DNA of 64,000 bases from NCBI GenBank assembly GCA_041159065.1, contig JBEBAG010000288.1:380-64379 (forward strand). The letters run 5' to 3'. The notes beneath the pieces were generated by a model that saw only the letters and a program-made list of their open reading frames with translations, had not been told where the DNA came from and searched no databases. The position numbers and the translations under genes were made by a program. Positions 34,365 to 49,164 of this stretch are shown in pieces. Within the stretch, counting starts at the first letter, position 1, and each line of letters begins with the position of its first letter. The DNA is from Verrucomicrobiota bacterium (GTDB taxonomy: Bacteria; Verrucomicrobiota; Verrucomicrobiia; Chthoniobacterales; Chthoniobacteraceae).

Positions 34365-34441
<77 letters not shown>

Positions 34442-34588: not shown

Positions 34589-36184
34589 ATGCCTCCCGTC
34601 TCCCGCTGCCTTCCCCTCCTCCTTGGGTTTCTGTTTTCCGTGCCCATGCCCCTGCCGGCCTCCGCCGCCGAGGGACCCGGCTTCTGGCCGCAGGCCGCGG
34701 GGCCGCGGGCCGATTGGACGTCGGATTCCAAGGACGCGCCGGTTTCGTGGAGCGTTGCGTTGAATCAAAACATCGCTTGGAAGACCACGCTGCCCGAGAC
34801 CGGGCAGAGCGGGATCGCCGTCTGGGGCAACCGGTTGTTTCTGACGACCATGAAGCCGCTTGAGCCGGACTCCAAAAAGCGCACGGGAAGCGCGGTGGTG
34901 GGGTATTGTTTGGATGCGGATTCGGGATCGATCCTGTGGACCGTGGAGCTGCCGGGGGTGGAGGAAAGCACCTACGCGTATGGGTTCAGCGATTCCTCTT
35001 CACCCACGCCGGTGACGGACGGTGAGCATGTGTGGTTTTTCAACGCGAGTGGCTCGGTGGGATGCTGGGATTATGCGGGCAAGCCGGTGTGGCTGCGGAC
35101 GTGGACTCCGACCAAGGGGCGTCCATTTAACAAGCAATTCGAGCCGATGCTGGCGGGGGACACGCTTCTGAATATGGAGCCTCGGGACGAGGGCGACCCG
35201 AAGCGGGAGCAGGATCCTTGGAACTACCTGCGGGGTCTGGATAAGCGCACGGGCAGGACCCTGTGGGTATCCGACGACGCGCTGACCCACTACAACACGC
35301 CGGGGCTGGGGGTGCTGCCAGACGGGATGCGGGTGGTGTTGCAGGGGCGGGGAGGACACCACGGGGTTCCGGAGGCCCCGGTGGGGATGAGCGCGACCAG
35401 CCTCATGCCGGGCGAGGAGGGGCGTACGGTGTGGCGTTACGAGGGGGAGGGCCGCGCCCTGTACACCATGCAGATGGATGGGCGGTACGCTTACTGGTGG
35501 AACGAGTCGGATCGCGTGGAGGTGCTGGATTCCAGCACGGGCAAGAGGGTGAGGACGCTTTCCCTGAGCGAGCGGGTGGATTTGCGGCGGTTTCGTCCGG
35601 AGTCGGGTCGTTACGAGTTGGAGGAGGGGGTGGCGCTTGCACAGGTGCTTCCCGAGCAGAAGGTTTTCCCGGCATGGTTCACCAATGTGCAGTGCGGCAA
35701 TTTTCTGTATTTCCTGTGCTTCTCGGAGCGGAAGTATGGCCCGGCGCATTGCGTCGGTCGGGTGCATGGGGAGAGTGGCAAAGTGGAGTATTTGGAAGTG
35801 CCGGTGCAGGTGGTGCGCCGTCCGGGAGAGGCGGAGTCGAGGATCTGGGGGGAGCCGCAGGCGAGTTCAACGGTGAATGCGCGTGGAATCGATGTGGCGG
35901 GGGACAAACGCTCGAAGCGGGACGGATGGTACTGGTGCATGCTGGGGAATCCGACGGTGTTGGGCGGGCGGGTGTACTTCACCACGATGCTGGGCGTGAC
36001 GTACGTGCTGGACGGACTCGCTCCGGTGCTGGATGAGAAGGCGCTCCTCTCCGTGAACGATCTGGGCAAGGCCGGGGAGACGTGGAGTCTGAACACCCTG
36101 AGCGGCGCGGGAGACCGGCTCTACCATCGCAGCATGCGCGAGGTGGTGTGCATTCGGAATCAGCCCAGCGCCGGGCGGCCCTGA
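34589..36184 (+). CDS. secreted PQQ-like/BamB-like beta-propeller repeat protein
   Basis: Signal peptide MPPVSRCLPLLLGFLFSVPMPLPASA. NIAWKTTLPETGQSGIAVWGNRLFLTT, GSILWTVELPG, GKPVWLRTW and GRTLWVSDD are recurring propeller-blade motifs. Confidence 0.7.
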   Translation: MPPVSRCLPLLLGFLFSVPMPLPASAAEGPGFWPQAAGPRADWTSDSKDAPVSWSVALNQNIAWKTTLPETGQSGIAVWGNRLFLTTMKPLEPDSKKRTGSAVVGYCLDADSGSILWTVELPGVEESTYAYGFSDSSSPTPVTDGEHVWFFNASGSVGCWDYAGKPVWLRTWTPTKGRPFNKQFEPMLAGDTLLNMEPRDEGDPKREQDPWNYLRGLDKRTGRTLWVSDDALTHYNTPGLGVLPDGMRVVLQGRGGHHGVPEAPVGMSATSLMPGEEGRTVWRYEGEGRALYTMQMDGRYAYWWNESDRVEVLDSSTGKRVRTLSLSERVDLRRFRPESGRYELEEGVALAQVLPEQKVFPAWFTNVQCGNFLYFLCFSERKYGPAHCVGRVHGESGKVEYLEVPVQVVRRPGEAESRIWGEPQASSTVNARGIDVAGDKRSKRDGWYWCMLGNPTVLGGRVYFTTMLGVTYVLDGLAPVLDEKALLSVNDLGKAGETWSLNTLSGAGDRLYHRSMREVVCIRNQPSAGRP

Positions 36185-36292
36185 GGGGAGCGGGGGGCGC
36201 TTTTCCAGCGCGCGGGCGGGGTTTCGTTCCGTCCCGTTTTTCCTCTTGCGGGAGGGGTTTCGGGGCGAATACAGTCCCGCCCCTTCAGTCTT

Positions 36293-36378
36293 GGGTAGAT
36301 ACCGAAGTGGCCAAACGGGGCGGACTGTAAATCCGCTGGCTTACGCCTTCGCTGGTTCGAATCCAGCTCTGCCCACCA
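36293..36378 (+). tRNA. tRNA-Tyr (anticodon GTA), class II with long variable arm, CCA encoded
   Basis: 86 nt: GGGTAGATACCGAAGTGGCCAAACGGGGCGGACTGTAAATCCGCTGGCTTACGCCTTCGCTGGTTCGAATCCAGCTCTGCCCACCA. Hand fold: 7-bp acceptor stem (one G-U), 3-bp D stem, anticodon loop CTGTAAA, variable stem GGC/GCC, T-loop TTCGAAT. Confidence 0.93.
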
Positions 36379-36560
36379 CTGAGATCCGAAACGGTGCGCA
36401 AAAGGTCCCGGGGAAGAAGAGCGAGGATCCTGAAGGGTCCGCAGGCAAGCGCGGGGGGAGGAAGTCGGGAAGGGGGGCGGGTCTGTTGATCGGGATTCCT
36501 CAGAAAATCCATGGAAACAAAGTCTGTTACGCGCGCGGCTTTTTAGTGTGATAAGGGTAT

Positions 36561-37271
36561 ATGGACTGGTATTACGCAGAAAACGGCGCGCAGGTGGGAC
36601 CTGTGTCCGAGCTCGAGATTCGCGATTTCGTGGCGCAAGGACGATTGAATGGCACTACGCTGGTTTGGAACCAGACGCTGTCGGGTTGGGAGCCGCTCGC
36701 AGTGGCTCTGCCGGAAGTGCAAACCTTGGCAGGGGAGGGGCGGCGAGTGGGAGGGGTGGTCGTTGCGGATGCCGACAAGGATCGGATGGTGCAGCGATTG
36801 CGGGAAGGAGCGGAGGAAGGCTTGGGGACAGAGGTTCGTTATGGAGGCTTTTGGTTGCGTCTCATGGCGAAGATTTTGGACGGAGTGATCCAGCAGATCC
36901 CCATGTATTTCATCAACAAAGGCATCGCCTCGGCGTGGGGTTTGAATCCGTCCGCGGTGGCGAGTCTCGAACAGGGGTCGGAGGTGTTCATGGTGATTGG
37001 GGTGCAGATGTCGGTTGGACTGGTTCTGGGGTGTTTGTACAGCGCGCTATTGAACGCGCGTTTTGGGGCGACCCTTGGGAAAAAAGCCTTGGGTTTACGC
37101 GTCGTGACGGAGAATGGAGCGAATCTTTCGATCGGGCGGGCCGTGGCGCGTTACTTTGCCGAGATGCTGAGCGCCTTTCTGCTTTTTATTGGTTTTTTGA
37201 TGGTTGGTTTCGATTCGAAAAAGCGGGGGCTTCACGACCGAATTTGCGCCACGTTCGTGGTGCGCTCCTAG
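36561..37271 (+). CDS. GYF_2 (DUF4339)-domain / RDD-family membrane protein
   Basis: N-terminus MDWYYAENGAQVGPVSELEIRDFVAQGRLNGTTLVWNQTLSGWEPL (GYF_2 pattern). C-terminal RDD pattern RYGGFWLRLMAKILDGVI ... GLRVVTENGANLSIGRAVARYFAEMLS ... KKRGLHDRICATFVV. Confidence 0.8.
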   Translation: MDWYYAENGAQVGPVSELEIRDFVAQGRLNGTTLVWNQTLSGWEPLAVALPEVQTLAGEGRRVGGVVVADADKDRMVQRLREGAEEGLGTEVRYGGFWLRLMAKILDGVIQQIPMYFINKGIASAWGLNPSAVASLEQGSEVFMVIGVQMSVGLVLGCLYSALLNARFGATLGKKALGLRVVTENGANLSIGRAVARYFAEMLSAFLLFIGFLMVGFDSKKRGLHDRICATFVVRS

Positions 37272-37318
37272 AAGCGTTTCAAGGGAGGTGGTCCCGGCTG
37301 ATTTGCGCCTGATTGCTC

Positions 37319-37939
37319 ATGCACCCGGTGGAGTGTTTTTTTTGTTGCGGCCCCTTTTTCCTGGAGGCGGAGCTGGCCCCGGATCGTGCAACGTGTGGGC
37401 GTTGCCGGAGAACATCCTGGGTGACGGTTTTTCCCGCGTTCCGGGGGCTTCCGTCCGATCAGCCACCGGCGCTTTCGGAGGAGGCGCCTCCTCCCGGCGA
37501 GGGAGAGGCGGTGTGTTTTTATGCTCCGCACCGGCGTGCGACCCATGAGTGCGGCCACTGCGGGGTCATGATCTCTCTGGCATGGGTTGCGCACTGGGGG
37601 CGGAAGGTGGTGTGTCTGAAGTGCTTGGAGCACTTGCGAGCGAAGGGGCGGGACGTGCAGTTCCAAACGCGGGTGCCTTTGTGGGAGCATCTGGTGCTTT
37701 GGCTTGCCCTGGTTCCTTTGACGCTCGTGCTTTACTGGACTGTCTTTGTGACCGCCCCGGCGGCGGTGTTCCTAGGATTGTGGAAGTGGAATGCGCCGCG
37801 GAGCATCGTGTCACGCTCACGTTGGAGGTTGGTGGTGGGCCTCATTCTGGCAACGATCCAGATTCTGGCGGTGATTTTCCTGATCTATTCAGCCGTCCAG
37901 ACTACCAAGGCCGGCGGAGCGGCGTGGACGCGTCGTTGA
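37319..37939 (+). CDS. Cys-rich (zinc-ribbon plus B-box-like) membrane protein, unknown function
   Basis: The track ORF starts at TTG 37313; the first ATG is at 37319 (MHPVECFFCCG...). CFFCC..x14..CGRC, then CFYAPHRRATHECGHC..x17..CLKC. These are followed by hydrophobic segments (WEHLVLWLALVPLTLVLYWTVFVTAPAAVFLGLW, WRLVVGLILATIQILAVIFLIY). Confidence 0.6.
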   Translation: MHPVECFFCCGPFFLEAELAPDRATCGRCRRTSWVTVFPAFRGLPSDQPPALSEEAPPPGEGEAVCFYAPHRRATHECGHCGVMISLAWVAHWGRKVVCLKCLEHLRAKGRDVQFQTRVPLWEHLVLWLALVPLTLVLYWTVFVTAPAAVFLGLWKWNAPRSIVSRSRWRLVVGLILATIQILAVIFLIYSAVQTTKAGGAAWTRR

Positions 37940-37955
37940 AGGGAGTCCCTCGCGT

Positions 37956-39083
37956 ATGAGAAAACAAATGGGAGAGTATCGGTATCTTGCGGGAAGCCGC
38001 CGCGCGAGGGGTACGCTCTGGGAGGGGCCCGACCACCTGTTGTATGTGGAGTGGACGGGATTCCCGACGATTTTGCACGAGACGCTCAAACGGCTGGATT
38101 ACCGGAATATCCTGGCGGTCACCTACGCCAAAACGCGCTGGGGATGGGTGCATGCCGCCTGGCTGGGACTCGCGCTTGCAGGGTTCGGATGGAAGGCGAT
38201 GACGGCATCGAATTTCGGGGCTCGGTCGTTTTATCAGATTCTGAGCGGGGCATTTTTTCTGGGCCTTTTGGTTCATGTCTTCCGGGGGCCGACGTGCGTT
38301 TGTACGATCCAAACGGCGGTGGGCGTGCATCGGATCAGAGCGTTGCGCCGTGTGTCGGCGGCTCGGCTTTTTGTTCGCCGTTTGAGCGAGCTGTGTTTGC
38401 TGCATCAGGGGGGGGAGGAGTTGCCGCTCTCCGTGCTCGCCTCGGGGGAGTCCGATTTTAGGCGGGGATGGGCGCGGGATGGTCAGCGCAAGCCCCCTGT
38501 ATTCTCGGGGTCGAGGCTGGTGGTTCTCTCCCTCGCAATGTTGGTGTTGAGCGGGGTGCTTCTGGTGGCCAAGCCGTTTAGCCAGAGCGGGGTTTTGTTT
38601 TGGGGTATTCTGGTATCGGATTTGGCGGGGGGGATTCTGGTGTTGGCGGCGCTTGCCCGAAATGCTCGGTTTTCATTGCCTCGCACACTCCGTGGGGCGC
38701 TCTGGACCGGGACGGTGCTCTCTGCGGTTCACGGCGTGATCGGCGTGGTAATCTACTTGTGGATGGTGACGGCCTCGTTTGTGTCGGCCGGACGCGAGGG
38801 CAGAGCGCCGACGCCTCTCGGGAATGTTGGAGTTGACTACTTGGAGGAAAGTTACCGGCGGCTGCATGGGTTGACTTTTTTGGAAATGGGAAAGGCAGGT
38901 TGGATTCTAGTGGGGTTGGGGGTGGCGCATGCGGTGGTGGGTTTGCTGGGGCTCGGGTCCCTCTGGTTTGGAGCGCCCCGGGTTTCCGGAGGCGAGGGCG
39001 AGGGAGGGCTTCGGATCCCGCCTCCCCTGCCTGACGGGGTACCGGGACGAGGAGCGGCACCTGGGGAGGAGGGGCTCCTGTGA
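37956..39083 (+). CDS. polytopic membrane protein, unknown function
   Basis: 375 aa, 16 nt after the preceding gene. Soluble N-terminus of about 55 aa (YLAGSRRARGTLWEGPDHLLYVEWTGFPTILHETLKRLDYRNILAVTY), then at least 6 hydrophobic segments and a Gly/Pro-rich tail. No family recognised. Confidence 0.6.
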   Translation: MRKQMGEYRYLAGSRRARGTLWEGPDHLLYVEWTGFPTILHETLKRLDYRNILAVTYAKTRWGWVHAAWLGLALAGFGWKAMTASNFGARSFYQILSGAFFLGLLVHVFRGPTCVCTIQTAVGVHRIRALRRVSAARLFVRRLSELCLLHQGGEELPLSVLASGESDFRRGWARDGQRKPPVFSGSRLVVLSLAMLVLSGVLLVAKPFSQSGVLFWGILVSDLAGGILVLAALARNARFSLPRTLRGALWTGTVLSAVHGVIGVVIYLWMVTASFVSAGREGRAPTPLGNVGVDYLEESYRRLHGLTFLEMGKAGWILVGLGVAHAVVGLLGLGSLWFGAPRVSGGEGEGGLRIPPPLPDGVPGRGAAPGEEGLL

Positions 39084-39421
39084 ACGGTCCTGCGCCTGCA
39101 GGGGCTGCGGTAGGGCTGAAGGCGGCCTGCCTGAATCACACAGGGCGTGAGGTGGCTGCGCGATGCATGGGGTGTGGGAAAGGGTTTTGTCGGGAGTGTG
39201 TCACCCCTTTTGAGAGGCGGATGTTCTGCGTGGGATGCCATCCGAGCCGCGCGGGGGCGGAGGCCAAGGCGAGGCGAGACGTGTGGATGATCTTTTCGAT
39301 CGTGCAGGTTGTGGCGGGGGGTCTGTTGCTCTGGTGGAGTGCTTATCTATTGGGATGGTTGCTGATGCGAATTCCCGCGAGTTTTCACGAAGGAACGATC
39401 TGGAGCCGTTTTAGCGGCTGA
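39080..39421 (+). CDS. B-box-like zinc-finger membrane protein, unknown function
   Basis: The GTG start overlaps the previous stop (GTGA 39080-39083). CLNHTGREVAARCMGCGKGFCRECVTPFERRMFCVGCH, then a hydrophobic hairpin WMIFSIVQVVAGGLLLWWSAYLLGWLLM. Confidence 0.6.
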   Translation: MNGPAPAGAAVGLKAACLNHTGREVAARCMGCGKGFCRECVTPFERRMFCVGCHPSRAGAEAKARRDVWMIFSIVQVVAGGLLLWWSAYLLGWLLMRIPASFHEGTIWSRFSG

Positions 39422-39447
39422 ACGAAGCGGCGATTTCGGGTGAGGAG

Positions 39448-41130
39448 ATGAACAACGCGCGCGCTGACGAGGGCCTTTCGATGGAGCCGATCCGGATGCT
39501 GGACGAAGCCACGGGATTGTTGCGGCGCTGTGGGCCTTGGCCTTGGGTGTGGTGGGTTGCCAGTTCGGCGCCGTTCGCGATCGGTCTATTCCGTTTCATT
39601 CACGACATGGCGCGATCGGCCACGGCTCCCGAGCGGATCACGGGGGCCGCCTTGAAGTTGGCGCTCTTGTACTGGGCGATGAAGGTGGGGCAGGCGTTTT
39701 TTGGGGCCGCCTTGCTGCGGACGCTGCGGGGTGGGGGCGAGCGTGGTTCCCTCTCGTTGGGAAGCGTTGTGCGGTTGGTGTGTGCGCTCGCGTGGATTGC
39801 GAGCACCCTGCCCTGGGTGCTGGGAGTATCGCTGGTCCTGATGGCCCCCTTCGGATGGGCCTTCACGGCCTACCACAACGCTTCCATTTTGGCGGTGGAG
39901 GTGTTCCAGAGAGGGGGGCGGATGCGGGACCTGGTTCGGCTGGCTGTCGGGGAGTCCCATGACCGGTGGCTTCAAAACCATCTGGTGATCACATTCTTGG
40001 GGATTTTTGCGCTGATCGTATGGCTCAACCTCCACGTGGGCTTGGGGCTCGGCGCGGCGCTGCTCAGCGTGGTGTCAGGGGAAGAAAACGTGCTGACGCG
40101 TAATCCGGCGATGCTGCTGGGAACCCCGGTTCTCGCCGGGACCGTGCTCGTTTCCTACTTGCTGGTCGGCCCGTGGGTGCGGGCGGTTCATGCGTTGCGT
40201 TGCTTCCGGAGTCTTTCGAAGAAAAACGGGGAGGATCTCCGGATCGCCTTTCGCCGCGCCGGTTCTGGTTTGGCAATTGCGGGAGTGGCCGGACTCTTGT
40301 GGTTGGGTTTTCCGGGAGCGCTTGTGGCTGCCGATGCAGCGGGTTCGCGGGCTGAGCGCGGGGCGGCCCCGGCTCCTTCCCGGATTGCGCCGGAGCGGCT
40401 CGAGCAAGGGATTCGCAGGGTGCTGGAGGAGGAGAAATTCCACTGGCGCGTTCCCGGCTCGGCGCGTGCGGAGCGTGAAGCCAAGGGGGCGGTGGGGGCT
40501 TTTTTTTCGGACATCGCCGACTGGATTTTGGAGTCGGTGCAGCGGCCGATAAAGAGGGGCTGGCAGTGGCTCAAAGAGTGGGTCGACCGGCTTTTCAAGG
40601 ATCCCGCCCACCGGCGCTCGGGGAGGGAGGGGTGGAGCCAACGTGTGCCGGTGACGCTGAAAGTCTTGAGTGGATTGATGGTGGTCCTGCTTGGGGTGGG
40701 CGCAGTGGTTTGGTACCGGCGCCGGCGGCGGGGGGAGGTGGTGCCGACGGTTTCCGGCGCGAGTTTTATCAATCTGGAGAGCGGGGAGTTGGTCGCCTCG
40801 CAATTTCCCTCCGAGGAGTGGCTGCGCCTGGCCGAAGCAAAGGTGGCGACGGGCGAACTGCGGCTTGCGATGCGTGCTGTTTTTTTGGCGACGCTGGCGA
40901 TTTTGGGGGAGCGGAAGTTGGTGCGGATTGGGAAGTCGAAGTCGAATGGGGACTATCTGCGGGAGCTTTCGGCGCGCACGCGGGATCGGGTGTGCCTGGG
41001 GGAGTGGTTCCGGGAGGAGGTGCGGTTTTTCGACTGGGCATGGTATGGATGCCACGAGGTGAGTTGGGAAAATTTCGAGCGTTTCCGGGCGAATCATCAG
41101 CGGATTATGGACGATGCAACGGCGAAGTAA
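39448..41130 (+). CDS. polytopic membrane protein with DUF4129-like C-terminal domain
   Basis: GAGGAG 3 nt upstream of ATG 39448. Multiple TM segments in the first 300 aa or so, and a late TM LSGLMVVLLGVGAVVWY. C-terminal ...ILGERKLVRIGKSKSNGDYLRELSARTRD...FFDWAWYGCHEVSWENFERF matches the DUF4129 pattern as I remember it. Confidence 0.7.
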   Translation: MNNARADEGLSMEPIRMLDEATGLLRRCGPWPWVWWVASSAPFAIGLFRFIHDMARSATAPERITGAALKLALLYWAMKVGQAFFGAALLRTLRGGGERGSLSLGSVVRLVCALAWIASTLPWVLGVSLVLMAPFGWAFTAYHNASILAVEVFQRGGRMRDLVRLAVGESHDRWLQNHLVITFLGIFALIVWLNLHVGLGLGAALLSVVSGEENVLTRNPAMLLGTPVLAGTVLVSYLLVGPWVRAVHALRCFRSLSKKNGEDLRIAFRRAGSGLAIAGVAGLLWLGFPGALVAADAAGSRAERGAAPAPSRIAPERLEQGIRRVLEEEKFHWRVPGSARAEREAKGAVGAFFSDIADWILESVQRPIKRGWQWLKEWVDRLFKDPAHRRSGREGWSQRVPVTLKVLSGLMVVLLGVGAVVWYRRRRRGEVVPTVSGASFINLESGELVASQFPSEEWLRLAEAKVATGELRLAMRAVFLATLAILGERKLVRIGKSKSNGDYLRELSARTRDRVCLGEWFREEVRFFDWAWYGCHEVSWENFERFRANHQRIMDDATAK

Positions 41131-42478
41131 CCAACCTGCGGGGAGTCGTTTGGGGTGGATCGTTCTGATCGCCATGCTGGTGTTTTTCTGCGTCGGATTG
41201 GCGCGCTCGATGCACGACCGGTTTGCTCTGGGCGATCACTACCCGGCCTACTCGAGTGCGCGTGCTGATCCGGTGGGAACGCAGGTGTTGTTTGAGTCGC
41301 TCGAGCGGCAGGAGGGCCTGGAGGTGAGTCGCAATTTCTATGTCGATTTCTCCAAGCTGCGCGGGGAGCCGGGCCGCACCCTGATCCTGGCGGGGCTCAA
41401 TACGCTGAGGTTTGGGAATGCAGGATCTTTGGATACGCCGGCTCTGCTCCGTTTCGCCCAGGATGGAGGGCGTTTGGTGATCGCGCTGGATCCGGTGCAG
41501 GGGGAGGAGTCGGGTTCATCCCACTCGGGGCGTGGAGGGGCAACGGAGAAAAGCAACCCCTCCGACTCAGGGGCCTCCCAGCGCCGGGAAGGCAAGTCGC
41601 GGCCCTCCGAGGAGAAGCCCCCGCGCCGACGCAAATTCACGAGCCTTTCGGAGGCGCTGGATCTGCCTGCCTCGGGAAGGCGGTTTTTGTTGGGGCCCCA
41701 TTCGGGAGACGTGCTGGTGCCGGAGGAGGCTTTTGCTTCGGTTTTGGGGAAGGCGCCGCGCTGGTTTGGGTATGTGAATCTGGGCGGAGCGGAAGGCGTG
41801 GAGGAGGAGAGGCACGAGAGCGGGCCTGGCGTGACGGAGGGGCGTCCGGGGTTGGGTCGGCCTTGGAAGGTGATTGCGCGCCATCAGCGGCGTGTTGCGA
41901 TTGCGGAGCGTTGGATCGGCAAGGGTTCGGTGGTGGTATGCTCGGATCGCTATTTTTTGAGTAATGAGGCGCTTTGGAAGGAGCCCGCTCCGGCGCTCTT
42001 GAGCTGGCTGATTGGACCGGCCAGACACGTGATTTTTGAGGAGACGCATCTGGATAAATGGGGGTGGTTGGGGGATGCGGACGGGGTCATGAGTTTGGTG
42101 CGGGCGTACCGGATGGAGGGGCTTATTTTCGGAGGGATTTTGCTCTTCGTTCTGATGCTTTGGCGGAATGCCTCGAGCCTGGTGCCCGCCGGTGGGTCCG
42201 AGGACGGGGATGGGGACGGGGGCGAGGTGAGTGCGGTGGAGGGGCGGGGGATGAACTCGGGGCTGGAGCTCTTGCTGCGCCGCGGAATTCCCTTTCCACG
42301 CCTTCTGCAACGGTGCTTGGAGGTGTGGGAGTCTTCCGCAGCGCTATCGCGTCGGGTGCCGGAAACGCGGCGTCAGGCGGCGCGGAAGCTTGTCCAAGAG
42401 CCCTGCGGTGCGGAGGACGGAGTGAAGGCGTATGGGCGCGTTCGGGATATTCTGCATGGAAGAGATGGAAAACTTTAA
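41114..42478 (+). CDS. DUF4350-like membrane-anchored protein
   Basis: ATG 41114 overlaps the preceding gene by 17 nt. N-terminal TM LGWIVLIAMLVFFCVGLA, then YPAYSSARADPVGTQVLFESLERQEGLEVSRNF (typical DUF4350 opening), and a second TM near the C-terminus (LIFGGILLFVLMLW). Confidence 0.7.
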   Translation: MQRRSNQPAGSRLGWIVLIAMLVFFCVGLARSMHDRFALGDHYPAYSSARADPVGTQVLFESLERQEGLEVSRNFYVDFSKLRGEPGRTLILAGLNTLRFGNAGSLDTPALLRFAQDGGRLVIALDPVQGEESGSSHSGRGGATEKSNPSDSGASQRREGKSRPSEEKPPRRRKFTSLSEALDLPASGRRFLLGPHSGDVLVPEEAFASVLGKAPRWFGYVNLGGAEGVEEERHESGPGVTEGRPGLGRPWKVIARHQRRVAIAERWIGKGSVVVCSDRYFLSNEALWKEPAPALLSWLIGPARHVIFEETHLDKWGWLGDADGVMSLVRAYRMEGLIFGGILLFVLMLWRNASSLVPAGGSEDGDGDGGEVSAVEGRGMNSGLELLLRRGIPFPRLLQRCLEVWESSAALSRRVPETRRQAARKLVQEPCGAEDGVKAYGRVRDILHGRDGKL

Positions 42479-42491
42479 TGGAAAATAGGTT

Positions 42492-43457
42492 ATGAATGAA
42501 ATGCTGGAGGAACTTCAGGGTACGCTGCGGGAAGCGAGGGAGGAGATCGCGAAGGTGATCATCGGGCAGCAGGCGCTCGTTGATCACTGTCTGATGGCGG
42601 TTTTCACACGCAACCACGTGTTGATTGAAGGGGCGCCTGGGGTGGGCAAAACCCTGCTGGTGCGGACGCTTGCGGGAGTGTTGGGGGCAGACTTTGGACG
42701 AGTCCAGTTTACCCCGGATCTGATGCCGGCAGACATCACGGGGACGAGTGTTTTCAATCTGAAAGAAAACGAGTTTCAGCTCGTGAAGGGGCCGATTTTC
42801 ACCAGTTTTCTGCTGGCCGATGAAATCAATCGAGCTCCAGCCAAGACGCAGGCTGCGTTGTTGCAGGCGATGCAGGAGCGGCAGGTGTCGATCGATCATC
42901 AAACGCACTCGCTCGCTCCGGAGTTTACGGTTTTTGCGACGCAGAATCCTGGGGACTACGAGGGAACCTATCCGCTGCCGGAGGCACAGAAAGATCGGTT
43001 CATGTTCAAATTGCGCGTGGACTATCCAAGCCGCAGCGAGGAGTTGGATCTTGCGGCGAGGTTGTTGGGGGAGGGAGCCCCGGAGCGTGTGTTGAGCACG
43101 GGAGGGGTGCGCGCGGTGCTTTCGGCGGAAAAGATTGCTCGGATGCAGCGCGCTTTGGAGGGCGTGGTTCTGAGCACGGAGTTGCGGGAGTACGCGGTGG
43201 ATTTGGTGCGGGCGAGTCGTGAAAGTGAGGCGGTGCTCGTGGGGGCGGGTCCCCGGGCGACGCTGGCGCTGGTGCTTGCGAGTCGGGCGCGCGCCGCATT
43301 GGAACAGCGCGACTTTGTGACGCCCGACGATGTCCGTGCGCTCGTGGAGCCGATTCTGGGGCACCGTCTTTTGTTGCGTCCGGAGTTTGAGATTGAGGGG
43401 CTGACGGTGAGCGAACTGGTGGGGCGGATTTTGGAGCAGGTGCCCGTGCCGCGTTAG
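42492..43457 (+). CDS. moxR: MoxR-family AAA+ ATPase
   Basis: Walker A EGAPGVGKTLL, Walker B/sensor FLLADEINRAPAKTQAALLQAMQERQVSI, FTVFATQNPGDYEGTYPLPEAQKDRF, C-terminal PDDVRALVEPILGHRL. No hydrophobic segment. Confidence 0.92.
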   Translation: MNEMLEELQGTLREAREEIAKVIIGQQALVDHCLMAVFTRNHVLIEGAPGVGKTLLVRTLAGVLGADFGRVQFTPDLMPADITGTSVFNLKENEFQLVKGPIFTSFLLADEINRAPAKTQAALLQAMQERQVSIDHQTHSLAPEFTVFATQNPGDYEGTYPLPEAQKDRFMFKLRVDYPSRSEELDLAARLLGEGAPERVLSTGGVRAVLSAEKIARMQRALEGVVLSTELREYAVDLVRASRESEAVLVGAGPRATLALVLASRARAALEQRDFVTPDDVRALVEPILGHRLLLRPEFEIEGLTVSELVGRILEQVPVPR

Positions 43458-43459
43458 CG

Positions 43460-44818
43460 ATGGCTTTCGTTCCTTCGAAGCGTCTGCTGTGGGGGGTGGC
43501 CGTCGGGGTGATGCCGGCCTGGCTTTGGCTGGGAATGACCGGGGTGTCTTCTGGTGTCCTGGTGCTGGGGTTGGGGAGCGTCGCGTGCTTTGCGCTTTTG
43601 GATGCACTGATGTCCCTCCGGGATTTGGACGGGGTGATGGTGAAAGCCGAGTCGATGGTGCGGGTGACGCGAGGGGGGCGTTTCGCCTGGAGGTTGGAGT
43701 TGGAGGGGGGCGGTGTGCGCGGCGGGGTGATGCGTTTGGGGATCGCTTTTCCCAAGGCTTTGAAGTGTGAGACCGAGGTGATGGAGGTTTGCTTCGAGGC
43801 GGGGAAACCGCGTGGGATCTTCCGCTGGGAGGGGCAAGCCTTGGAACGTGGGTCTTTTGAGATTCGGCAGGTGTACCTTGGAAAGCCCTCGAGGGTAGGA
43901 CTTTGGGAGATTCGAAGAGAGGTGCCAGTCCAGTGCGAGGTTCGGGTGTATCCGGACCTTTCCAGGCATCGAGACGTGCTGGCCCCCCTTTTTCTGCGGC
44001 GTGCGAGTCCCGGGATTCACTCCGTCCGGCAGATTGGTCGGGGCCGGGAGTTCGAACAGCTGCGCGCCTATGTTCCTGGGGATGGGTACGAGGACATTTA
44101 TTGGAAGGGGACGGCAAAACGGCGCTTCCCGGTGACGCGCGTGTATCAGACGGAGCGAACGCAGGAGATTTATGTGGCGGTGGATGTGTCGCGTCGGAGC
44201 GCTCGGGTGCTGGAGGGAAGCGGCTCCGGGGCTCAGACCGGAATGGTGGAGACCCAATGTGATCGGTTTCTGCAGGCGGCGCTGGTACTTGCGTTAACGG
44301 CATCCCAGCAGGGGGACCGGCTGGGGTTGGTGACCTTCAGTGATCAGGTCCACTCCATGCTGCCTGCGAGCGGCGGTAGCGCGCATTATGCGGCGTGCCG
44401 GGAGGCGTTGTATGCCCTGCATCCGAGGCGGGTGAATCCCGATTATGCAGAATTGTTTACGCAGATTGGGAATCGCGTCCGGAGGCGCTCTTTGGTGATC
44501 GTGCTGACGGATCTGGGGGAGGCGTGGTTGGCGGAGACCTTTCGCGAAGCGGTGCGGGAGTTGGCGCGGAAGCATTTGGTGCTGGTCCACTTTTTGGGTT
44601 CGCGGGAGGCGTCGCCTTTGTTTGGGCGCGAGGACGGGTTGCCGGATGCCGATGCCCTGTACGGGAGACTGGCTGGGCACATGGTATGGAGCGGCTTGGA
44701 GAAGACGGCGCGGGAGCTTTCGCAGTGGGGTGTGCACTTGGTGCGCAGTGACGAGGAGCGGTTGGTGGCGGAGGTGGTGTCGGAGTATTTGAAGGTGAAG
44801 AAGCGGCAGATTTTATGA
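43460..44818 (+). CDS. DUF58 domain protein (vWA-like MoxR partner), N-terminally membrane anchored
   Basis: Starts 2 nt after the moxR stop. Two N-terminal TM segments. DUF58 hallmark GREFEQLRAYVPGDGYEDIYWKGTAKRRFPVTRVYQTERTQEIYVAVDVSR, then a vWA-like LVTFSD...VIVLTDL. Confidence 0.88.
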   Translation: MAFVPSKRLLWGVAVGVMPAWLWLGMTGVSSGVLVLGLGSVACFALLDALMSLRDLDGVMVKAESMVRVTRGGRFAWRLELEGGGVRGGVMRLGIAFPKALKCETEVMEVCFEAGKPRGIFRWEGQALERGSFEIRQVYLGKPSRVGLWEIRREVPVQCEVRVYPDLSRHRDVLAPLFLRRASPGIHSVRQIGRGREFEQLRAYVPGDGYEDIYWKGTAKRRFPVTRVYQTERTQEIYVAVDVSRRSARVLEGSGSGAQTGMVETQCDRFLQAALVLALTASQQGDRLGLVTFSDQVHSMLPASGGSAHYAACREALYALHPRRVNPDYAELFTQIGNRVRRRSLVIVLTDLGEAWLAETFREAVRELARKHLVLVHFLGSREASPLFGREDGLPDADALYGRLAGHMVWSGLEKTARELSQWGVHLVRSDEERLVAEVVSEYLKVKKRQIL

Positions 44819-45840
44819 TTGTGGATCTGAAGGCTTTTTTGGCGAAGGAGGAGCCCTCGTGGCACGAACTGGAGCGTGCTTTGGACGCATTGGATGCGAA
44901 GACGCTCGATTTGGGTCGGTTGGAGGAAAGCGAGCGTCTGCTGTTGCTCTTTGAGCGGGCCTGTTCGGATTTGGCGAGGATGGGGGAGGGGACGAGCGAA
45001 CCGCAGGCGCGCGCGTATTTGGAGGCTCTGGTGGCTCGGGGATATGCGGAGATTCACTCGGGGAGTGGGGGCGGGCGTCCGATTCGTCCGTGGCGGTGGC
45101 TGGTGGTCGAATTTCCGCGCGCCTTTCGCCGTCACGCTTGGGCGTTTGGATGCTCGGTGTTGCTCACGGTGCTGGGGATGCTGGTCGGGGCGATCCTTTT
45201 GGTGGTCAGTCCCGAGGGACGCCGAGTGGCGACGGCGCCCTTCGCGCATGTGGCGTTGCAGTCTCCCTCGGAGCGTGTGGCGAGCGAGGAAAAGGACGTC
45301 GGGCATCATCGGAAAGCGTTGGAGGGGAGTGCCTCCCGATTTTCTGCGCAACTGATGAAGAACAACATTTCCGTGAGTATCAAGGCCGCCGCCTTCGGCA
45401 TGACGTGGGGAGTGGGCACGGCGCTCTTGCTGTTTTACAACGGGGTGATTCTCGGGGCGGTTTGCCTGGATTACGTGCTCGACGGGCAGTCCGTTTTTCT
45501 CGCGGCGTGGTTGCTTCCGCACGGCTCGTTTGAGATTCCTGCGATCCTGATGGGCGGGCAGGTGGGGCTGGTCTTGGCGGGGGCGTTGGTGGGGTGGGGA
45601 ACGCGTGAAGGATTGCGGACTCGTTTGCGAGCCGTGGTGCCGGACGTGGCCACGCTGGTGGGAGGACTTTCGTTGATGTTGGTGTGGGCGGGATTGGTGG
45701 AAGCCTTCTTCTCCCAGTATCATGCGCCGGTGATTCCGTACTCGGTGAAGATCGTGTTTGGAGGAATCGAGTGCGTGCTCCTGGTTGCGTTCCTTGCGTG
45801 GAGTGGTCGTCAAAAGCGGGATGGGGAGGAACAAGGATGA
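44815..45840 (+). CDS. SpoIIM/DUF95-family membrane protein
   Basis: ATGA overlap with the DUF58 stop. FSAQLMKNNISVSIKAAAFGMTWGVGTALLLFYNGVILGAV and LLPHGSFEIPAILMGGQVGL are characteristic SpoIIM-like blocks. Confidence 0.8.
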   Translation: MIVDLKAFLAKEEPSWHELERALDALDAKTLDLGRLEESERLLLLFERACSDLARMGEGTSEPQARAYLEALVARGYAEIHSGSGGGRPIRPWRWLVVEFPRAFRRHAWAFGCSVLLTVLGMLVGAILLVVSPEGRRVATAPFAHVALQSPSERVASEEKDVGHHRKALEGSASRFSAQLMKNNISVSIKAAAFGMTWGVGTALLLFYNGVILGAVCLDYVLDGQSVFLAAWLLPHGSFEIPAILMGGQVGLVLAGALVGWGTREGLRTRLRAVVPDVATLVGGLSLMLVWAGLVEAFFSQYHAPVIPYSVKIVFGGIECVLLVAFLAWSGRQKRDGEEQG

Positions 45841-46637
45841 ATCCCACGAGTCTCGCGTTTGGAACTCTCAAGATCACAACCCCCGAGGGAATCACGTTTT
45901 CCATCAGGCTTGCCGGTCCTTTGAGTCGGGGGATGGCCGCAGCCTTGGATTTTGCGCTGGTCCTGGTGGTGTCCCGAATGCTGTCCAAAGGTTTGGCTCC
46001 GCTGGAAGCGGCCCTTCCGGATCTCGGAGCTGCCTTTGGGATGATTCTGCACTTCGTGGTATCCGTCGGCTATGGAATGGCTCTGGAATGGCGCTTCCAA
46101 GGACAGACCGTGGGCAAGCGGGTGATGGGGCTGCGGGTGATGGATGCGCGGGGGTTGCACCTCACCCACAGTCAGGTGGTGTTGCGCAATCTCCTGCGGG
46201 TTGTGGATCTGCTTCCCCTCGTGTACGCGGTCGGGGGCGTCGCCTGCTTGGCCAATCGGAGAGGACAGCGTCTGGGGGATCTTGCGGCGGGGACGGTTGT
46301 GGTATCGGTCGCGGCGGAGGCAGTTCCCGATGTACACGCGCTTGGGGCGCTTCGATATAATAGTTTCCGTCAGTATCCGCATCTGGAGGCGAGGCTTCGT
46401 CAGAAGGTGAGCGCGGCTGAGGCCAACCTGGCTGTGTCGGCTCTGCTCCGCAGGGAGGATCTGGAGGAGGCGGCCGCGGCCGAAGTGTTTGGGGAGATGG
46501 CTGCGACCTTTCGGAAGCGGGTGCGCTTTCCCGAGGAGGCGGAGCAGGGTTTGAGTTCCGAACAGTACGTGCGCAACGTGGTGGACAGTATTTTTCGGAG
46601 CGCGAGTCGCTCGGAGGGGGCGGGCCTCCGGCGCTGA
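45837..46637 (+). CDS. RDD-family membrane protein
   Basis: Track ORF 45684-46637, trimmed to ATG 45837 (ATGA overlap with the previous stop). LSRGMAAALDFALVLVV ... GQTVGKRVMGLRVMDARGLHLTHSQVVLRNLLRVVDLLP ... RGQRLGDLAAGTVVV. Confidence 0.85.
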   Translation: MNPTSLAFGTLKITTPEGITFSIRLAGPLSRGMAAALDFALVLVVSRMLSKGLAPLEAALPDLGAAFGMILHFVVSVGYGMALEWRFQGQTVGKRVMGLRVMDARGLHLTHSQVVLRNLLRVVDLLPLVYAVGGVACLANRRGQRLGDLAAGTVVVSVAAEAVPDVHALGALRYNSFRQYPHLEARLRQKVSAAEANLAVSALLRREDLEEAAAAEVFGEMAATFRKRVRFPEEAEQGLSSEQYVRNVVDSIFRSASRSEGAGLRR

Positions 46638-46799: not shown

Positions 46800-47732
46800 C
46801 TAGCGGTTGTCGGCGGTTGCCGTCCCCGGATGGGGGGCGTCGAGAATCCGGACCTGATTGATGGACTTGAAGAGGGTGTGGTCGGCGTAAGTCCAGACGA
46901 CCTGCTTCTCAGGCGTGAGTTCGTAGAGGTGGGGTTTCTCGCCGGAAAGCCAGTCGCACAGGATGGTGTTTCCGTTGGGGAGGCGTTGGGCTCCGGTGAT
47001 GGAGTGGATGGGGGGATTGGGAAGCTCTTTTTCGGTGACGGACCAGACCACCTGTCCGGAGGGATCCAGCTCTTGGAATGCGCGGCCATAACCGCAGGTG
47101 ACGAGGTGGTGGCCGTTGGCGAGGGTTTCCAATTGCACGGGAGTTCCGGGAACCGGAAACGTGCGGACGATTTCCCCCGAGGCGGTGAGTTCGAGGAGGC
47201 GGCGATCGCTGCACATCGCCACGAGATAGTTCCCACTGGCGAGCTTGCGGGCGCCTCGGAACTGCGTGTGGGTGGAAAGGTTGGGCCGTACGGGCACGGG
47301 GACCTCGCGAACGACGCTGCCGGAGCGGTCGACCTCGACGAGTCGTTTGGTGCCACACTCGCCGACGAGCACGTTGCCATCAGGCAGGGGTTGAGCGGCA
47401 TGAACCTCCGTTCCCGGGGGAGCCTTGTATTCCCAGACGATCTGCTTGGCGGGGGTCACCTCTCTGGCACCGGAGGCATGGGAGAAGAGGATGTTTCCGT
47501 TGGGGAGAAGCCAGCAGTCCTGAGGGGCTTTGGCCTCGATGCGCCATTCGATTTGGCCGTCGGTTCCGACGATGCAGACCTGTCCGCCGGAGTAATCGGA
47601 GCAGAGGAAGCGGTGGCGGATGGGGGAGTCGGCGGCGTGGGAGAGGGGGGAAAGGGAAAAAAGGGGGGCGAGAGCCGAAAGGGTGGCGAGGGCGAGGGAG
47701 CGGGCAGAGGGCGGGATGCGGGTGGAGAGCAT
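46800..47732 (-). CDS. secreted beta-propeller repeat protein, unknown function
   Basis: Track ORF 46800-47861, trimmed to ATG 47732 (MLSTRIPPSARSLALATLSALAPLFSLSPLSHA signal peptide). Recurrent ...G.IVWEY / LPNGN.L blades. 13 nt downstream of the DUF1501 gene on the same strand. Confidence 0.6.
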   Translation of the reverse strand: MLSTRIPPSARSLALATLSALAPLFSLSPLSHAADSPIRHRFLCSDYSGGQVCIVGTDGQIEWRIEAKAPQDCWLLPNGNILFSHASGAREVTPAKQIVWEYKAPPGTEVHAAQPLPDGNVLVGECGTKRLVEVDRSGSVVREVPVPVRPNLSTHTQFRGARKLASGNYLVAMCSDRRLLELTASGEIVRTFPVPGTPVQLETLANGHHLVTCGYGRAFQELDPSGQVVWSVTEKELPNPPIHSITGAQRLPNGNTILCDWLSGEKPHLYELTPEKQVVWTYADHTLFKSINQVRILDAPHPGTATADNR

Positions 47733-47745
47733 GGGGGGAGCGGGG

Positions 47746-49164
47746 TTAGGCGATGATGTCTCGGATGGGGGTGCCATGGTCGACGGCGAGGCGTTTGCGG
47801 TCGGGCAGTTCGAGTTTGCGGGAATCCAGGCCGAGCAGGGTGAGGAGGGTGGCGTGGACATCGGTCACGAAGTGGCGGTTCTCGACGGCGTGGAATCCGA
47901 GCTCGTCGGTGGCGCCGTGGACATAGCCTCCCTTGACGCCGCCACCGGCCATCCAGATGGAGAAGCCGAAGGGGTGATGGTCGCGGCCGGCGTTGCCTTC
48001 GGAGCCGGGGGTGCGTCCAAACTCGGTGGCGAAGACGACGAGGGTGTCTTCGAGGAGACCGCGTTGGTCGAGGTCGGTGAGGAGGGCGCCGATGGGTTGG
48101 TCGACGGCACGGGCGTTGGATTCGTGGTTGGATTTGAGGTTGCTGTGGGCGTCCCAGGCGCCGCCGCCGCCCCCGCCGTGTTGGATTTGGATGAAGCGCA
48201 CGCCTTTTTCGACGAAGCGTCTGGCGGCGAGGAGTTGCATCCCGAAGTCGCGGCAGTGCGGGAGGTGAAGGCCGTAGAGCTGTTTGGTGTGCTCGGATTC
48301 CTTCGAAAAGTTCACGATCTCGGGGACGCTCATTTGCATCCGGTAGGCGAGCTCGTAGGAGGCGACCCGGGCGGCAGTGGCGGGGTCGCGAGGGTAGGCG
48401 GCCTCCGCGTGTTGGTTCAGCGAGCGGACGAGATCGAAGTGGAGTTTTTGAGTTTCCGCCGAGACGGGGCGTTCGGGGCGACCGAAGTCGATGGGGTTGT
48501 TCGGATCAATTCGGAGCGGCACGGAGTTGTGAGCCGGGCCGAGATACAGGGAGTCTTTTTTGTCGAGGTACTCTCGTTTTCCGATGGAGATGTACTGGGG
48601 GAGGTTCTCATTGAGGGACCCGAGCCCGTAGTGGACCCAGGCGCCGACGGAGGGGAACTCGCCATCGAGCAGGTTGCGTCCGGTGTGGAACATGGCCTGG
48701 GCCTCGTGGTTGCTGTCGGTCGTGAACATCGAGCGGACGACGGAGATTTTGTCGATATTGGCTCCGATGTGGGGGAACCAGTCGCTGACTTCGATGCCGC
48801 TCCGGCCGTATTTTTGGAAGCCGACCTGCAGGGGGTAGAGGAGGTTGCGTTGAAAGCCGGCCATGACGGAGGAGCGCTTGGCCACGTTTTTTTGGACATC
48901 GGCGAAGGGGGTCTCGGAGATGTTTTTCCCGGCGTACTTGGTGACCATGGGCTTGGGATCGAAGCTCTCGAGGTGGCTGACGCCGCCGTTCATGAAGAGC
49001 CAGATCACGCTTTTGGCTTTGGCCGGGAAATGGGGAATGCCAGTGGGCGGGGCCCAGGCGGAGGCGGAGGCGAGGGCGTCGCGGTGGAGCAGCGAACCGA
49101 GGGCGATGCCGGAGAGGCCCTGGCTCATGCTGGCAAGAAAATGGCGGCGGGAGAGGGAGTGCAT
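47746..49164 (-). CDS. DUF1501 domain protein (sulfatase/alkaline-phosphatase-like fold), Tat-exported
   Basis: [22 protein letters not shown]; [20 protein letters not shown]; [48 protein letters not shown]. Confidence 0.88.

Follow-up and report, generated by a model that had tools for sequence, protein, structure and literature searches.

What does the gene for a soluble ATPase do in the midst of nine genes for membrane-anchored proteins? The question is raised by ten consecutive genes at positions 36561-46637 of a 64,000-nucleotide stretch of DNA from a Verrucomicrobiota bacterium (assembly GCA_041159065.1, contig JBEBAG010000288.1; the whole stretch is referred to as the window). The genes, numbered 1 to 10 in their order of reading, include a MoxR-type AAA+ ATPase (gene 7) and a DUF58 protein (gene 8), and had been picked out from the sequence as the best candidate for an uncharacterised system, a membrane-resident assembly or remodelling complex.

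The reading favored here, with a probability of about 0.6, is that the products of the ten genes make up a single protein machine, anchored in the inner membrane, which is driven by the cytoplasmic MoxR ATPase and consists of three modules. Genes 7-10 (MoxR, DUF58/vWA, SpoIIM-like, and RDD) are the ancient part that is common to other phyla. Genes 3-6 constitute an obligate quartet in Verrucomicrobiota, the DUF4129 and DUF4350 members of which adjoin MoxR in other phyla too, and genes 1-2 are an accessory pair.

In such a machine, a MoxR hexamer would hydrolyse ATP, and the membrane-tethered vWA domain of DUF58 would serve it as adaptor, like the vWA partner in other MoxR/vWA pairs. The two would assemble, activate, or remodel a membrane complex of the DUF4129, SpoIIM-like, and RDD proteins. 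The GldG-like DUF4350 module would provide the main domain of this complex outside the cytoplasm, while the zinc fingers, PH-like, and GYF domains would oligomerise the complex or recruit partners on its cytoplasmic face. Its role is likely housekeeping, in the biogenesis or maintenance of the membrane or envelope, and not defence. That the proteins physically form a complex is inferred, as are its topology, the role of DUF58 as adaptor, and the target in the cell's physiology. The description of the cluster as a remodelling complex is likewise drawn from knowledge of the families, and would apply by analogy: MoxR ATPases with vWA partners are maturation or remodelling factors, as in the pairs RavA-ViaA, CbbQ-CbbO, and NorQ-NorD.

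Conserved gene order and modularity

The order of the genes is the same in dozens of diverged genomes and is thus far beyond chance. An alignment of gene 5 was used to scan one genome per GTDB species, which gave 234 coding matches, and ten family profiles were run on the six-frame open reading frames (ORFs) of the loci. Enough flank was available in 45 loci, and enough upstream sequence in 55. The best 80 of the 234 matches come nearly all from metagenome-assembled genomes (MAGs) of Verrucomicrobiota, including Verrucomicrobiales, Limisphaerales, Pedosphaera, Chthoniobacter, Terrimicrobiaceae, and Akkermansiaceae. MAGs that carry the cluster include ones labelled Prosthecobacter and Verrucomicrobium. 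Of the 45 loci, 27 keep all ten genes colinear, one of them with an extra gene 1-like gene after gene 10. Three loci hold genes 2-10 and a divergent gene 1 on the other strand, and an opposite-strand gene 1 is seen in some Chthoniobacter-type loci; six retain genes 3-6 only, two genes 5-6 only, and seven contain other partial runs.

The upstream genes co-occur with the rest, a point that the original prediction had left to a census of gene neighbourhoods. Genes 3-4 lie directly 5' of gene 5 in 53/55 loci, and genes 1-4 are all upstream of it in 40/55. A reverse test on metagenome contigs, starting from gene 4, found gene 5 after it in 56 of 57 cases and gene 3 before it in 63 of 63. Single-sequence searches with genes 3 and 5 retrieved few relatives, which display the same upstream order wherever the contig reaches (locus L007 starts at gene 5, so its upstream genes lie off the contig). 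The four upstream genes had been viewed as a lineage-specific extension of the MoxR core. They are indeed syntenic with it, but they are not one block: genes 3-4 are tied to genes 5-6 more tightly than MoxR is, and genes 1-2 are more dispensable. No flanking gene family is found in more than 9/84 loci, so the cluster is self-contained, and an eleventh conserved gene was rejected on the same count.

Part of the order recurs outside Verrucomicrobiota, as the original prediction had stated. In genes 5-10 of the window, all six families (DUF4129-DUF4350-MoxR-DUF58-SpoIIM-RDD) are adjacent and co-directional. On plasmid pRL11 of Rhizobium (BSO17_RS27410-27440), genes for DUF805, DUF4129, DUF4350, MoxR, DUF58, SpoIIM, and RDD proteins run in one direction, and a plasmid of Paracoccus aminovorans (OH746_RS20800-20830) has them in the same order; in both loci DUF4129 is a weak match below the cut-off. 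Nonomuraea gerenzanensis carries RDD, SpoIIM, DUF58, MoxR, and DUF4350, with DUF4129 not detected. The set DUF4350-MoxR-DUF58-SpoIIM-RDD is present in Pseudomonadota and Actinomycetota, accompanied in two cases by a weak DUF4129. The verrucomicrobial profiles of genes 7-10 recognise the Rhizobium, Paracoccus, and Nonomuraea loci with expectation values (E) of 1e-20 to 1e-111. The profiles of genes 2, 3, and 4 give zero matches there at E <= 0.01, which marks the extension as lineage-specific. A table of mycobacterial expression data lists a contiguous Rv3689-Rv3695 with the same annotations (PMC8191103).

A few loci depart from this picture in their gene content or in their names. A sub-lineage of Verrucomicrobiales (L033, L020, L022, L026, L032, L047, and L075) is missing genes 1-2, and in most of its loci genes 7-10 are not adjacent. 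In L033, pdxJ is directly upstream of gene 3 and an acyltransferase gene follows gene 6; an upstream ORF family is common to nine loci that are devoid of genes 1-2. Non-verrucomicrobial names are borne by 13/80 loci, several of them plainly in error, and a further locus has no label beyond 'uncultured bacterium'. Among these, a cluster of the Verrucomicrobia type is seen in MAGs labelled Klebsiella, Bifidobacterium, Chitinophaga pinensis, and Saccharimonadales (L036, L058, L040, L061, and L083, among others). Gene 5 on the 'Bifidobacterium' contig is 97% identical to a Verrucomicrobia-labelled copy, which points to mis-binned or mislabelled MAG records. Three other loci, L068 (GC 0.41, labelled Deltaproteobacteria), L079 (Hydrogenedentota), and L076 (Acidobacteria), have the full or near-full order and a gene 5 that is 37-44% identical to any Verrucomicrobia-labelled copy. 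Such loci could represent deep branches of Verrucomicrobiota or a genuine presence of the cluster in other phyla.

Within the window, the ten plus-strand ORFs were confirmed to run in the same direction (Table 1), with intergenic spacings from gene 1 to gene 10 of +41, +16, -4, +26, -17, +13, +2, -4, and -4 nt. The junctions thus comprise four overlaps and five short gaps, with start and stop codons interlocked as GTGA at 39080 and ATGA at 44815 and 45837, all of which reproduces the earlier description of the locus. Junctions are comparably tight in the gene calls of relatives, where the 17-nt overlap of genes 5 and 6 recurs. GC content at third codon positions is 0.67-0.76 in each of the ten ORFs; the GC content of the window is 0.649. 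Two gene starts are ambiguous. Gene 2 may begin at TTG 37313 or ATG 37319, and one public gene call gives 94 aa only; the long form is right since orthologues of 180-201 aa share its invariant N-terminal cysteines. For gene 10, an alternative start exists at GTG 45684, and 45837 is favored by the lengths of orthologues (256-262 aa) and by the profile alignment.

The description of a tRNA-Tyr (36293-36378) followed by an AT-rich leader of about 180 nt also proved accurate, as the leader has a GC content of 0.571 against 0.649 for the window, dropping to 0.45 across the final 80 nt. An Rfam scan of the leader found no riboswitch or known RNA, nor was a sigma-70-like promoter found in it. Terminator-like sites are not enriched (21, versus 15.5 +/- 4.2 in shuffles). 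The tRNA-Tyr was rejected as a conserved landmark or integration site, its adjacency not being kept in 12 relatives.

Table 1. The ten genes and neighbouring features, in window coordinates
Feature	Positions	Strand	Description
Upstream flank	34589-36184	+	PQQ_2/BamB-like beta-propeller
Leader	36379-36560	+	tRNA-Tyr to gene 1; 182 nt, relatively AT-rich
Gene 1	36561-37271	+	GYF-RDD, 236 aa
Gene 2	37313-37939	+	zinc ribbon, B-box-like finger, and likely membrane helices
Gene 3	37956-39083	+	membrane protein with probable split PH-like domain, 375 aa
Gene 4	39080-39421	+	predicted B-box-like double zinc finger, one membrane helix, 113 aa
Gene 5	39448-41130	+	multi-pass, C-terminal DUF4129, 560 aa
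Gene 6	41114-42478	+	DUF4350 (GldG-like), 454 aa
Gene 7	42492-43457	+	MoxR AAA+ ATPase, soluble, 321 aa
Gene 8	43460-44818	+	DUF58, vWA-like, 452 aa
Gene 9	44815-45840	+	SpoIIM-like, multi-pass, 341 aa
Gene 10	45837-46637	+	RDD membrane protein, 266 aa
Downstream flank	46800-47861	-	PQQ_2/BamB-like beta-propeller, also matches Mala_s_1-like
DUF1501 gene	47746-49164	-	DUF1501 protein, 420 bits

Families and predicted architecture of the products

By a hydropathy scan, nine of the ten products have one or more hydrophobic segments and only MoxR, the sole soluble member, has none, as had been predicted. To call the set almost wholly membrane-embedded was, however, an overstatement given the large soluble parts, for example ~295 aa in the gene 6 product and ~400 aa in that of gene 8; 'membrane-anchored' fits the gene set better. 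Profile searches bore out the proposed GYF_2, RDD, DUF4129, DUF4350, AAA_3, DUF58, and SpoIIM assignments, and left the B-box call weak for the window copy. NCBIfam added nothing specific for the ten products. Two RDD proteins do bracket the cluster, scoring 84.6 bits (gene 1) and 61.7 bits (gene 10) against a cut-off of 24.1.

The gene 7 product matches AAA_3 (204.1 bits, cut-off 27) and AAA_lid_2 (72.4 bits, cut-off 22.7). Its residues K53/T54 (Walker A), D110/E111 (Walker B), N152, and R169 do not vary among 59 orthologues, in which the motifs GxPGxxKT, LLADEINR, ATQNP, and PEAQxDRF show little or no variation. Gene 8 starts 2 nt past the moxR stop codon and encodes a DUF58 protein (84.8 bits, cut-off 23.4; VWA_2, E 1.9e-5) with an N-terminal anchor, the hydrophobic region 24-53, ahead of a large vWA-like domain. 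At the position of the metal-ion-dependent adhesion site (MIDAS), it has D-x-S-R-x-S, one residue longer than the canonical D-x-S-x-S, with D and the first S kept in 51/51 orthologues and the last S/T in 50/51. The gene 9 product (SpoIIM, 108.9 bits, cut-off 26.9) begins with a soluble domain of ~106 aa, and precomputed annotations assign PF28475 (DUF8413) to the N-terminus of its orthologues. The RDD protein of gene 10 ends in a soluble domain of ~126 aa.

In the gene 5 product, a DUF4129 helical domain is located C-terminal to the last membrane helix of a multi-pass protein. The window copy scores 23.3 bits, just below the cut-off of 24.8, and DUF4129 is matched in 68/68 orthologues (best E 2.7e-11). 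For its N-terminal part, neither Pfam nor the PDB gave a match, a PDB profile search having returned designed helical bundles only. An AlphaFold2 model built from 7 sequences only is all-helical, with a predicted local distance difference test (pLDDT) score of 69.6, and produced no significant structural match in the PDB. The modelled DUF4129 domain (residues 446-560, window 40783-41127) superposes on HEPN-type four-helix bundles (2q00, 2hsb, 1ufb, and 1o3u) with Foldseek probabilities of up to 1.0, target-normalised template-modelling scores (TM-scores) of 0.5-0.6, and a root-mean-square deviation of ~4 A. The assignment to HEPN was not adopted given an E of ~0.8 and that the Rx4-6H motif was not seen. 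A degenerate TgpA was rejected too, as neither TgpA_N nor the transglutaminase is matched in gene 5 and its 68 orthologues (E <= 0.05); in the loop 296-398, the invariant positions are occupied by Leu, Trp, Arg, and Pro rather than by a Cys-His-Asp set.

The DUF4350 domain of the gene 6 product (39.5 bits) spans ~295 aa between hydrophobic segments 8-35 and 331-354 and is probably the only sizeable non-cytoplasmic domain of the cluster, by analogy with a family for which extracellular placement, similarity to GldG, and partnering with MoxR and vWA proteins have been described (PMC5898192). In the window copy, the domain is interrupted by a low-complexity insert of ~60 residues rich in Ser, Gly, Glu, and Arg (~120-180) that is not conserved in orthologues.

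Gene 3 encodes a protein with no Pfam or PDB sequence match, a PDB profile search again returning designed helical bundles only. A word-based search with the single sequence retrieved one relative and a profile of 74 sequences retrieved 170, none of which contains a Pfam domain. The AlphaFold2 model (121-sequence alignment, pLDDT 75.6) comprises five strands (9-60), a helical hairpin (62-109), two strands (113-127), a helix (133-151), and then a five-helix bundle; pLDDT is mostly 84-96 in the N-terminal domain made up of the strands and the 133-151 helix. Its top Foldseek matches are PH domains (FACT, SIN1, BTK, Exo84, and GRK2). These are weak (E 0.01-1), and the low TM-scores are attributable to the inserted hairpin and the membrane bundle. 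The model tentatively suggests an N-terminal PH-like domain that is split by a membrane hairpin. Conserved motifs are LWxGxDHLL, YKRFxFRDIQA, and GPTCxC. The family includes short forms of ~150-210 aa with the PH-like part and hairpin only (e.g. L002:9018-9659) and long forms of ~330-375 aa with the extra membrane bundle, which indicates that the C-terminal bundle is dispensable in many lineages.

The product of gene 4 is predicted to be a B-box-like double zinc finger. The window copy matches B-box models at E 0.015-0.03 (15-16 bits, cut-offs 24-27), so that the original B-box call is weak for this copy, and gains support from its orthologues, 76/78 of which match ANCHR-like_BBOX and 72/78 zf-B_box (E <= 0.05, best 1.4e-7). 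RING models also match some of them. The eight-ligand pattern C-x2-H-x8-C-x2-C-x4-C-x2-C-x9-C-x2-C is kept in 78 orthologues, and the best PDB sequence matches are TRIM21 RING, MID1 B-box1, and TFIIH p44. A short conserved tail with the motif FHEGTxW follows the single membrane helix. A set of 1.84 billion proteins yields 374 representative clusters of the family, almost all of ~100-130 aa.

A second finger of this kind is encoded by gene 2, which has no Pfam family. Its product displays a CxxC-x16-CxxC zinc ribbon at the N-terminus, followed by a B-box-like finger and by hydrophobic stretches at 119-155 and 168-196 that likely form three helices; C6, C9, C26, C29, C66, C78, C81, C99, and C102 are invariant across 59 orthologues. 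The finger is homologous to that of gene 4 (hhalign probability 97.6%, E 4e-12, 52 columns), and the cluster therefore holds two paralogous membrane-anchored B-box-like fingers. The middle Cys pair (residues ~80-90) is lost in the window copy, which reads MISLAW where the consensus is FLCALC, and in its relative L006; in this sub-lineage, the finger probably binds one zinc ion and not two.

Gene 1 combines RDD with GYF_2 (54.4 bits, cut-off 25.8), and the GYF domain is kept in 47/49 orthologues. The product has hydrophobic segments at 140-164 and 195-220, and the GYF domain would face the cytoplasm. Binding of this domain to a cluster partner is unsupported, given that PPP/PPG motifs peak in 41% of DUF58 orthologues and are conserved in none of the partner families, although profile envelopes may have trimmed the tails. 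In a Prosthecobacter-labelled locus (L017:5623-7198), two tandem copies of gene 1 precede gene 2.

The proposed single machine and its alternatives

Several points weigh against a single machine. Interaction among the ten proteins is presumed, the topology is predicted from hydropathy and charge alone, and a substrate is not evident. Neither a promoter nor a terminator is definable for the cluster, so the boundaries of what reads as a tightly packed operon rest on gene spacing only. A conserved proline-rich ligand for GYF was not found among the cluster partners, and the non-canonical D-x-S-R-x-S motif makes metal-dependent adhesion by DUF58 uncertain. Finally, genes 3-6 occur with no MoxR within 8 kb in six genomes, which implies that the modules need not always act together in cis.

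This last point leads to the quite improbable case of two or three independent systems (genes 1-2, 3-6, and 7-10) that are merely adjacent in many Verrucomicrobiota. The modules do part in some genomes, as with the loci above that are limited to genes 3-6 or 5-6 or have gene 1 on the opposite strand, and genes 7-10 stand apart from genes 2-4 in the three scanned loci of other phyla. Even so, DUF4350 adjoins MoxR-DUF58 in three phyla, with the weak DUF4129 of the two proteobacterial loci, and this links genes 3-6 to genes 7-10; the 27 genomes with all ten genes colinear, and the tight or overlapping junctions, argue in the same direction. An apparatus for secretion or surface translocation, in which the GldG-like DUF4350 and multi-pass proteins form a conduit whose assembly is controlled by MoxR/vWA, is possible yet unlikely. 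It would agree with the proposal made for DUF4350 (arCOG01314) with MoxR and vWA (Makarova et al., 2015; PMC5898192), with a weak ABC_transp_aux match of the gene 6 product (E 0.073), and with the majority of components being membrane proteins. In no lineage, however, does the cluster contain or adjoin genes for an ABC transporter, secretin, pilin-like protein, or cargo candidate. The archaeal S-layer and Ig-domain partners are absent too, and most soluble domains appear from hydropathy to be cytoplasmic.

A role in ion or metal handling is doubtful as well. Here, the RDD and SpoIIM-like proteins would be transporters, and MoxR/vWA would act like a chelatase, either activating a membrane enzyme or transporter or loading it with metal. 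One RDD protein, from Halobacillus, is reportedly a cation/proton antiporter, MoxR distantly matches subunits of Mg and Co chelatases (E ~1e-12, far under cut-off), DUF58 has a vWA-like fold, and genes 2 and 4 supply many conserved Cys/His ligands. Those Cys/His patterns, however, fit structural B-box/RING zinc fingers, the motif at the MIDAS position is non-canonical, and neither a metalloenzyme nor a known transporter family was found in the cluster. Least probable is a MoxR-vWA system for conflict or anti-phage defence. MoxR does give a secondary match to bpMoxR (44.7 bits), the model for MoxR-vWA-beta-propeller ternary systems, and PQQ_2 beta-propeller genes flank the cluster in the window, but the AAA_3 score is far higher, no propeller is among the ten products, and the flanks are not kept in relatives, so that their resemblance to the ternary systems is probably a coincidence. 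This candidate was rejected as PADLOC yielded only two MoxR matches at the P-loop level, effector domains are absent, and the gene order is broadly shared by several orders within a single phylum, as fits a housekeeping role. Each of these four readings is less supported than the single machine.

A bolder version of the single-machine reading, offered as a speculation with long odds, treats genes 3-6 and the accessory genes 1-2 as an undescribed, Verrucomicrobiota-specific membrane platform. Its B-box/RING-like fingers, split PH-like domain, and GYF domain would form an oligomeric, cytoplasm-facing scaffold that selects clients for the MoxR/vWA motor in the biogenesis of the envelope or of membrane proteins. 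If true, this would be the first functional handle on the cross-phyla MoxR-DUF58-DUF4350-SpoIIM-RDD gene set.

Among the surroundings of the cluster, the upstream beta-propeller gene is bracketed by tRNA-Met (CAT, 34365-34441) and the tRNA-Tyr (GTA), and a terminator-like hairpin (36214-36234) is located just 3' of it. DUF1501 is expanded in Planctomycetes and Verrucomicrobia, and the DUF1501 gene downstream fits an origin of the window in the Planctomycetes-Verrucomicrobia-Chlamydiae (PVC) group.

Relation to known systems

MoxR-DUF58-DUF4350-SpoIIM-RDD is conserved from mycobacteria (Rv3689-Rv3695) through Alphaproteobacteria to Verrucomicrobiota. The original prediction held that such neighbourhoods are without an experimentally assigned function, and no published function or functional study for the window cluster or its counterparts in other phyla was found in open-access papers and preprints, where a subscription-journal paper may be missed. 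If its function were worked out in a verrucomicrobium or mycobacterium amenable to experiment, thousands of genes now called 'hypothetical' would gain an annotation. Three families without an existing model (genes 2, 3, and 4) are peculiar to the verrucomicrobial form. Its B-box-like, PH-like, and GYF interaction modules give pull-downs and mutagenesis something concrete to aim at, and the half with DUF4129 and DUF4350 is a module separable from the MoxR half.

The closest systems are the loci of Rhizobium, Paracoccus, Nonomuraea, and mycobacteria. In the first two, the order of families is the same as in genes 5-10, but a DUF805 protein and a short DUF4129 protein of 251 aa stand in place of the 560-aa product of gene 5. 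The other two have their SpoIIM gene in inverted orientation, and the GYF-RDD gene at the front is absent from all four. The archaeal arCOG01314 system, predicted to be a secretion or membrane-remodelling complex (Makarova et al., 2015; PMC5898192), similarly places a membrane-anchored DUF4350 protein beside a MoxR-type ATPase and a vWA protein. Its partners, however, are Ig-domain and S-layer-like proteins, and SpoIIM, RDD, DUF4129, B-box, and GYF are not described there (PMC5898192).

The zinc fingers invite comparison with eukaryotic B-box/RING proteins such as TRIM21 and MID1, with which gene 4 shares profile matches and eight Cys/His ligands at B-box1-like spacing. The scores are mostly below cut-off, the bacterial finger is fused to membrane helices, and both the RING-B-box-coiled-coil order and nearby ubiquitin-system genes are absent. 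For bacteria, B-box-like fingers anchored in the membrane are already unusual.

Two bacterial operon types are built around the same pair of genes. MoxR-DUF58-TgpA operons, such as that of Pseudomonas aeruginosa tgpA, encode a transglutaminase with TgpA_N and DUF4129. As in the window, MoxR and DUF58 are found beside a multi-pass membrane protein ending in DUF4129, whereas the transglutaminase core and TgpA_N have no counterpart in gene 5. In Bat (Bacteroides aerotolerance) operons, with the order MoxR-DUF58-BatA-BatB-BatC-BatD, the MoxR (AAA_3) and DUF58 pair likewise heads a run of membrane proteins. Membrane vWA proteins other than DUF58, and TPR, were not found in the ten products, and SpoIIM, RDD, DUF4350, and DUF4129 are not known to be Bat components. 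Set against these systems, the cluster is a variant of a known, uncharacterised gene set and not a categorical surprise; what is new here is its three-module structure, the second B-box-like finger (gene 2), the probable PH-like domain of gene 3, and a quantified distribution.

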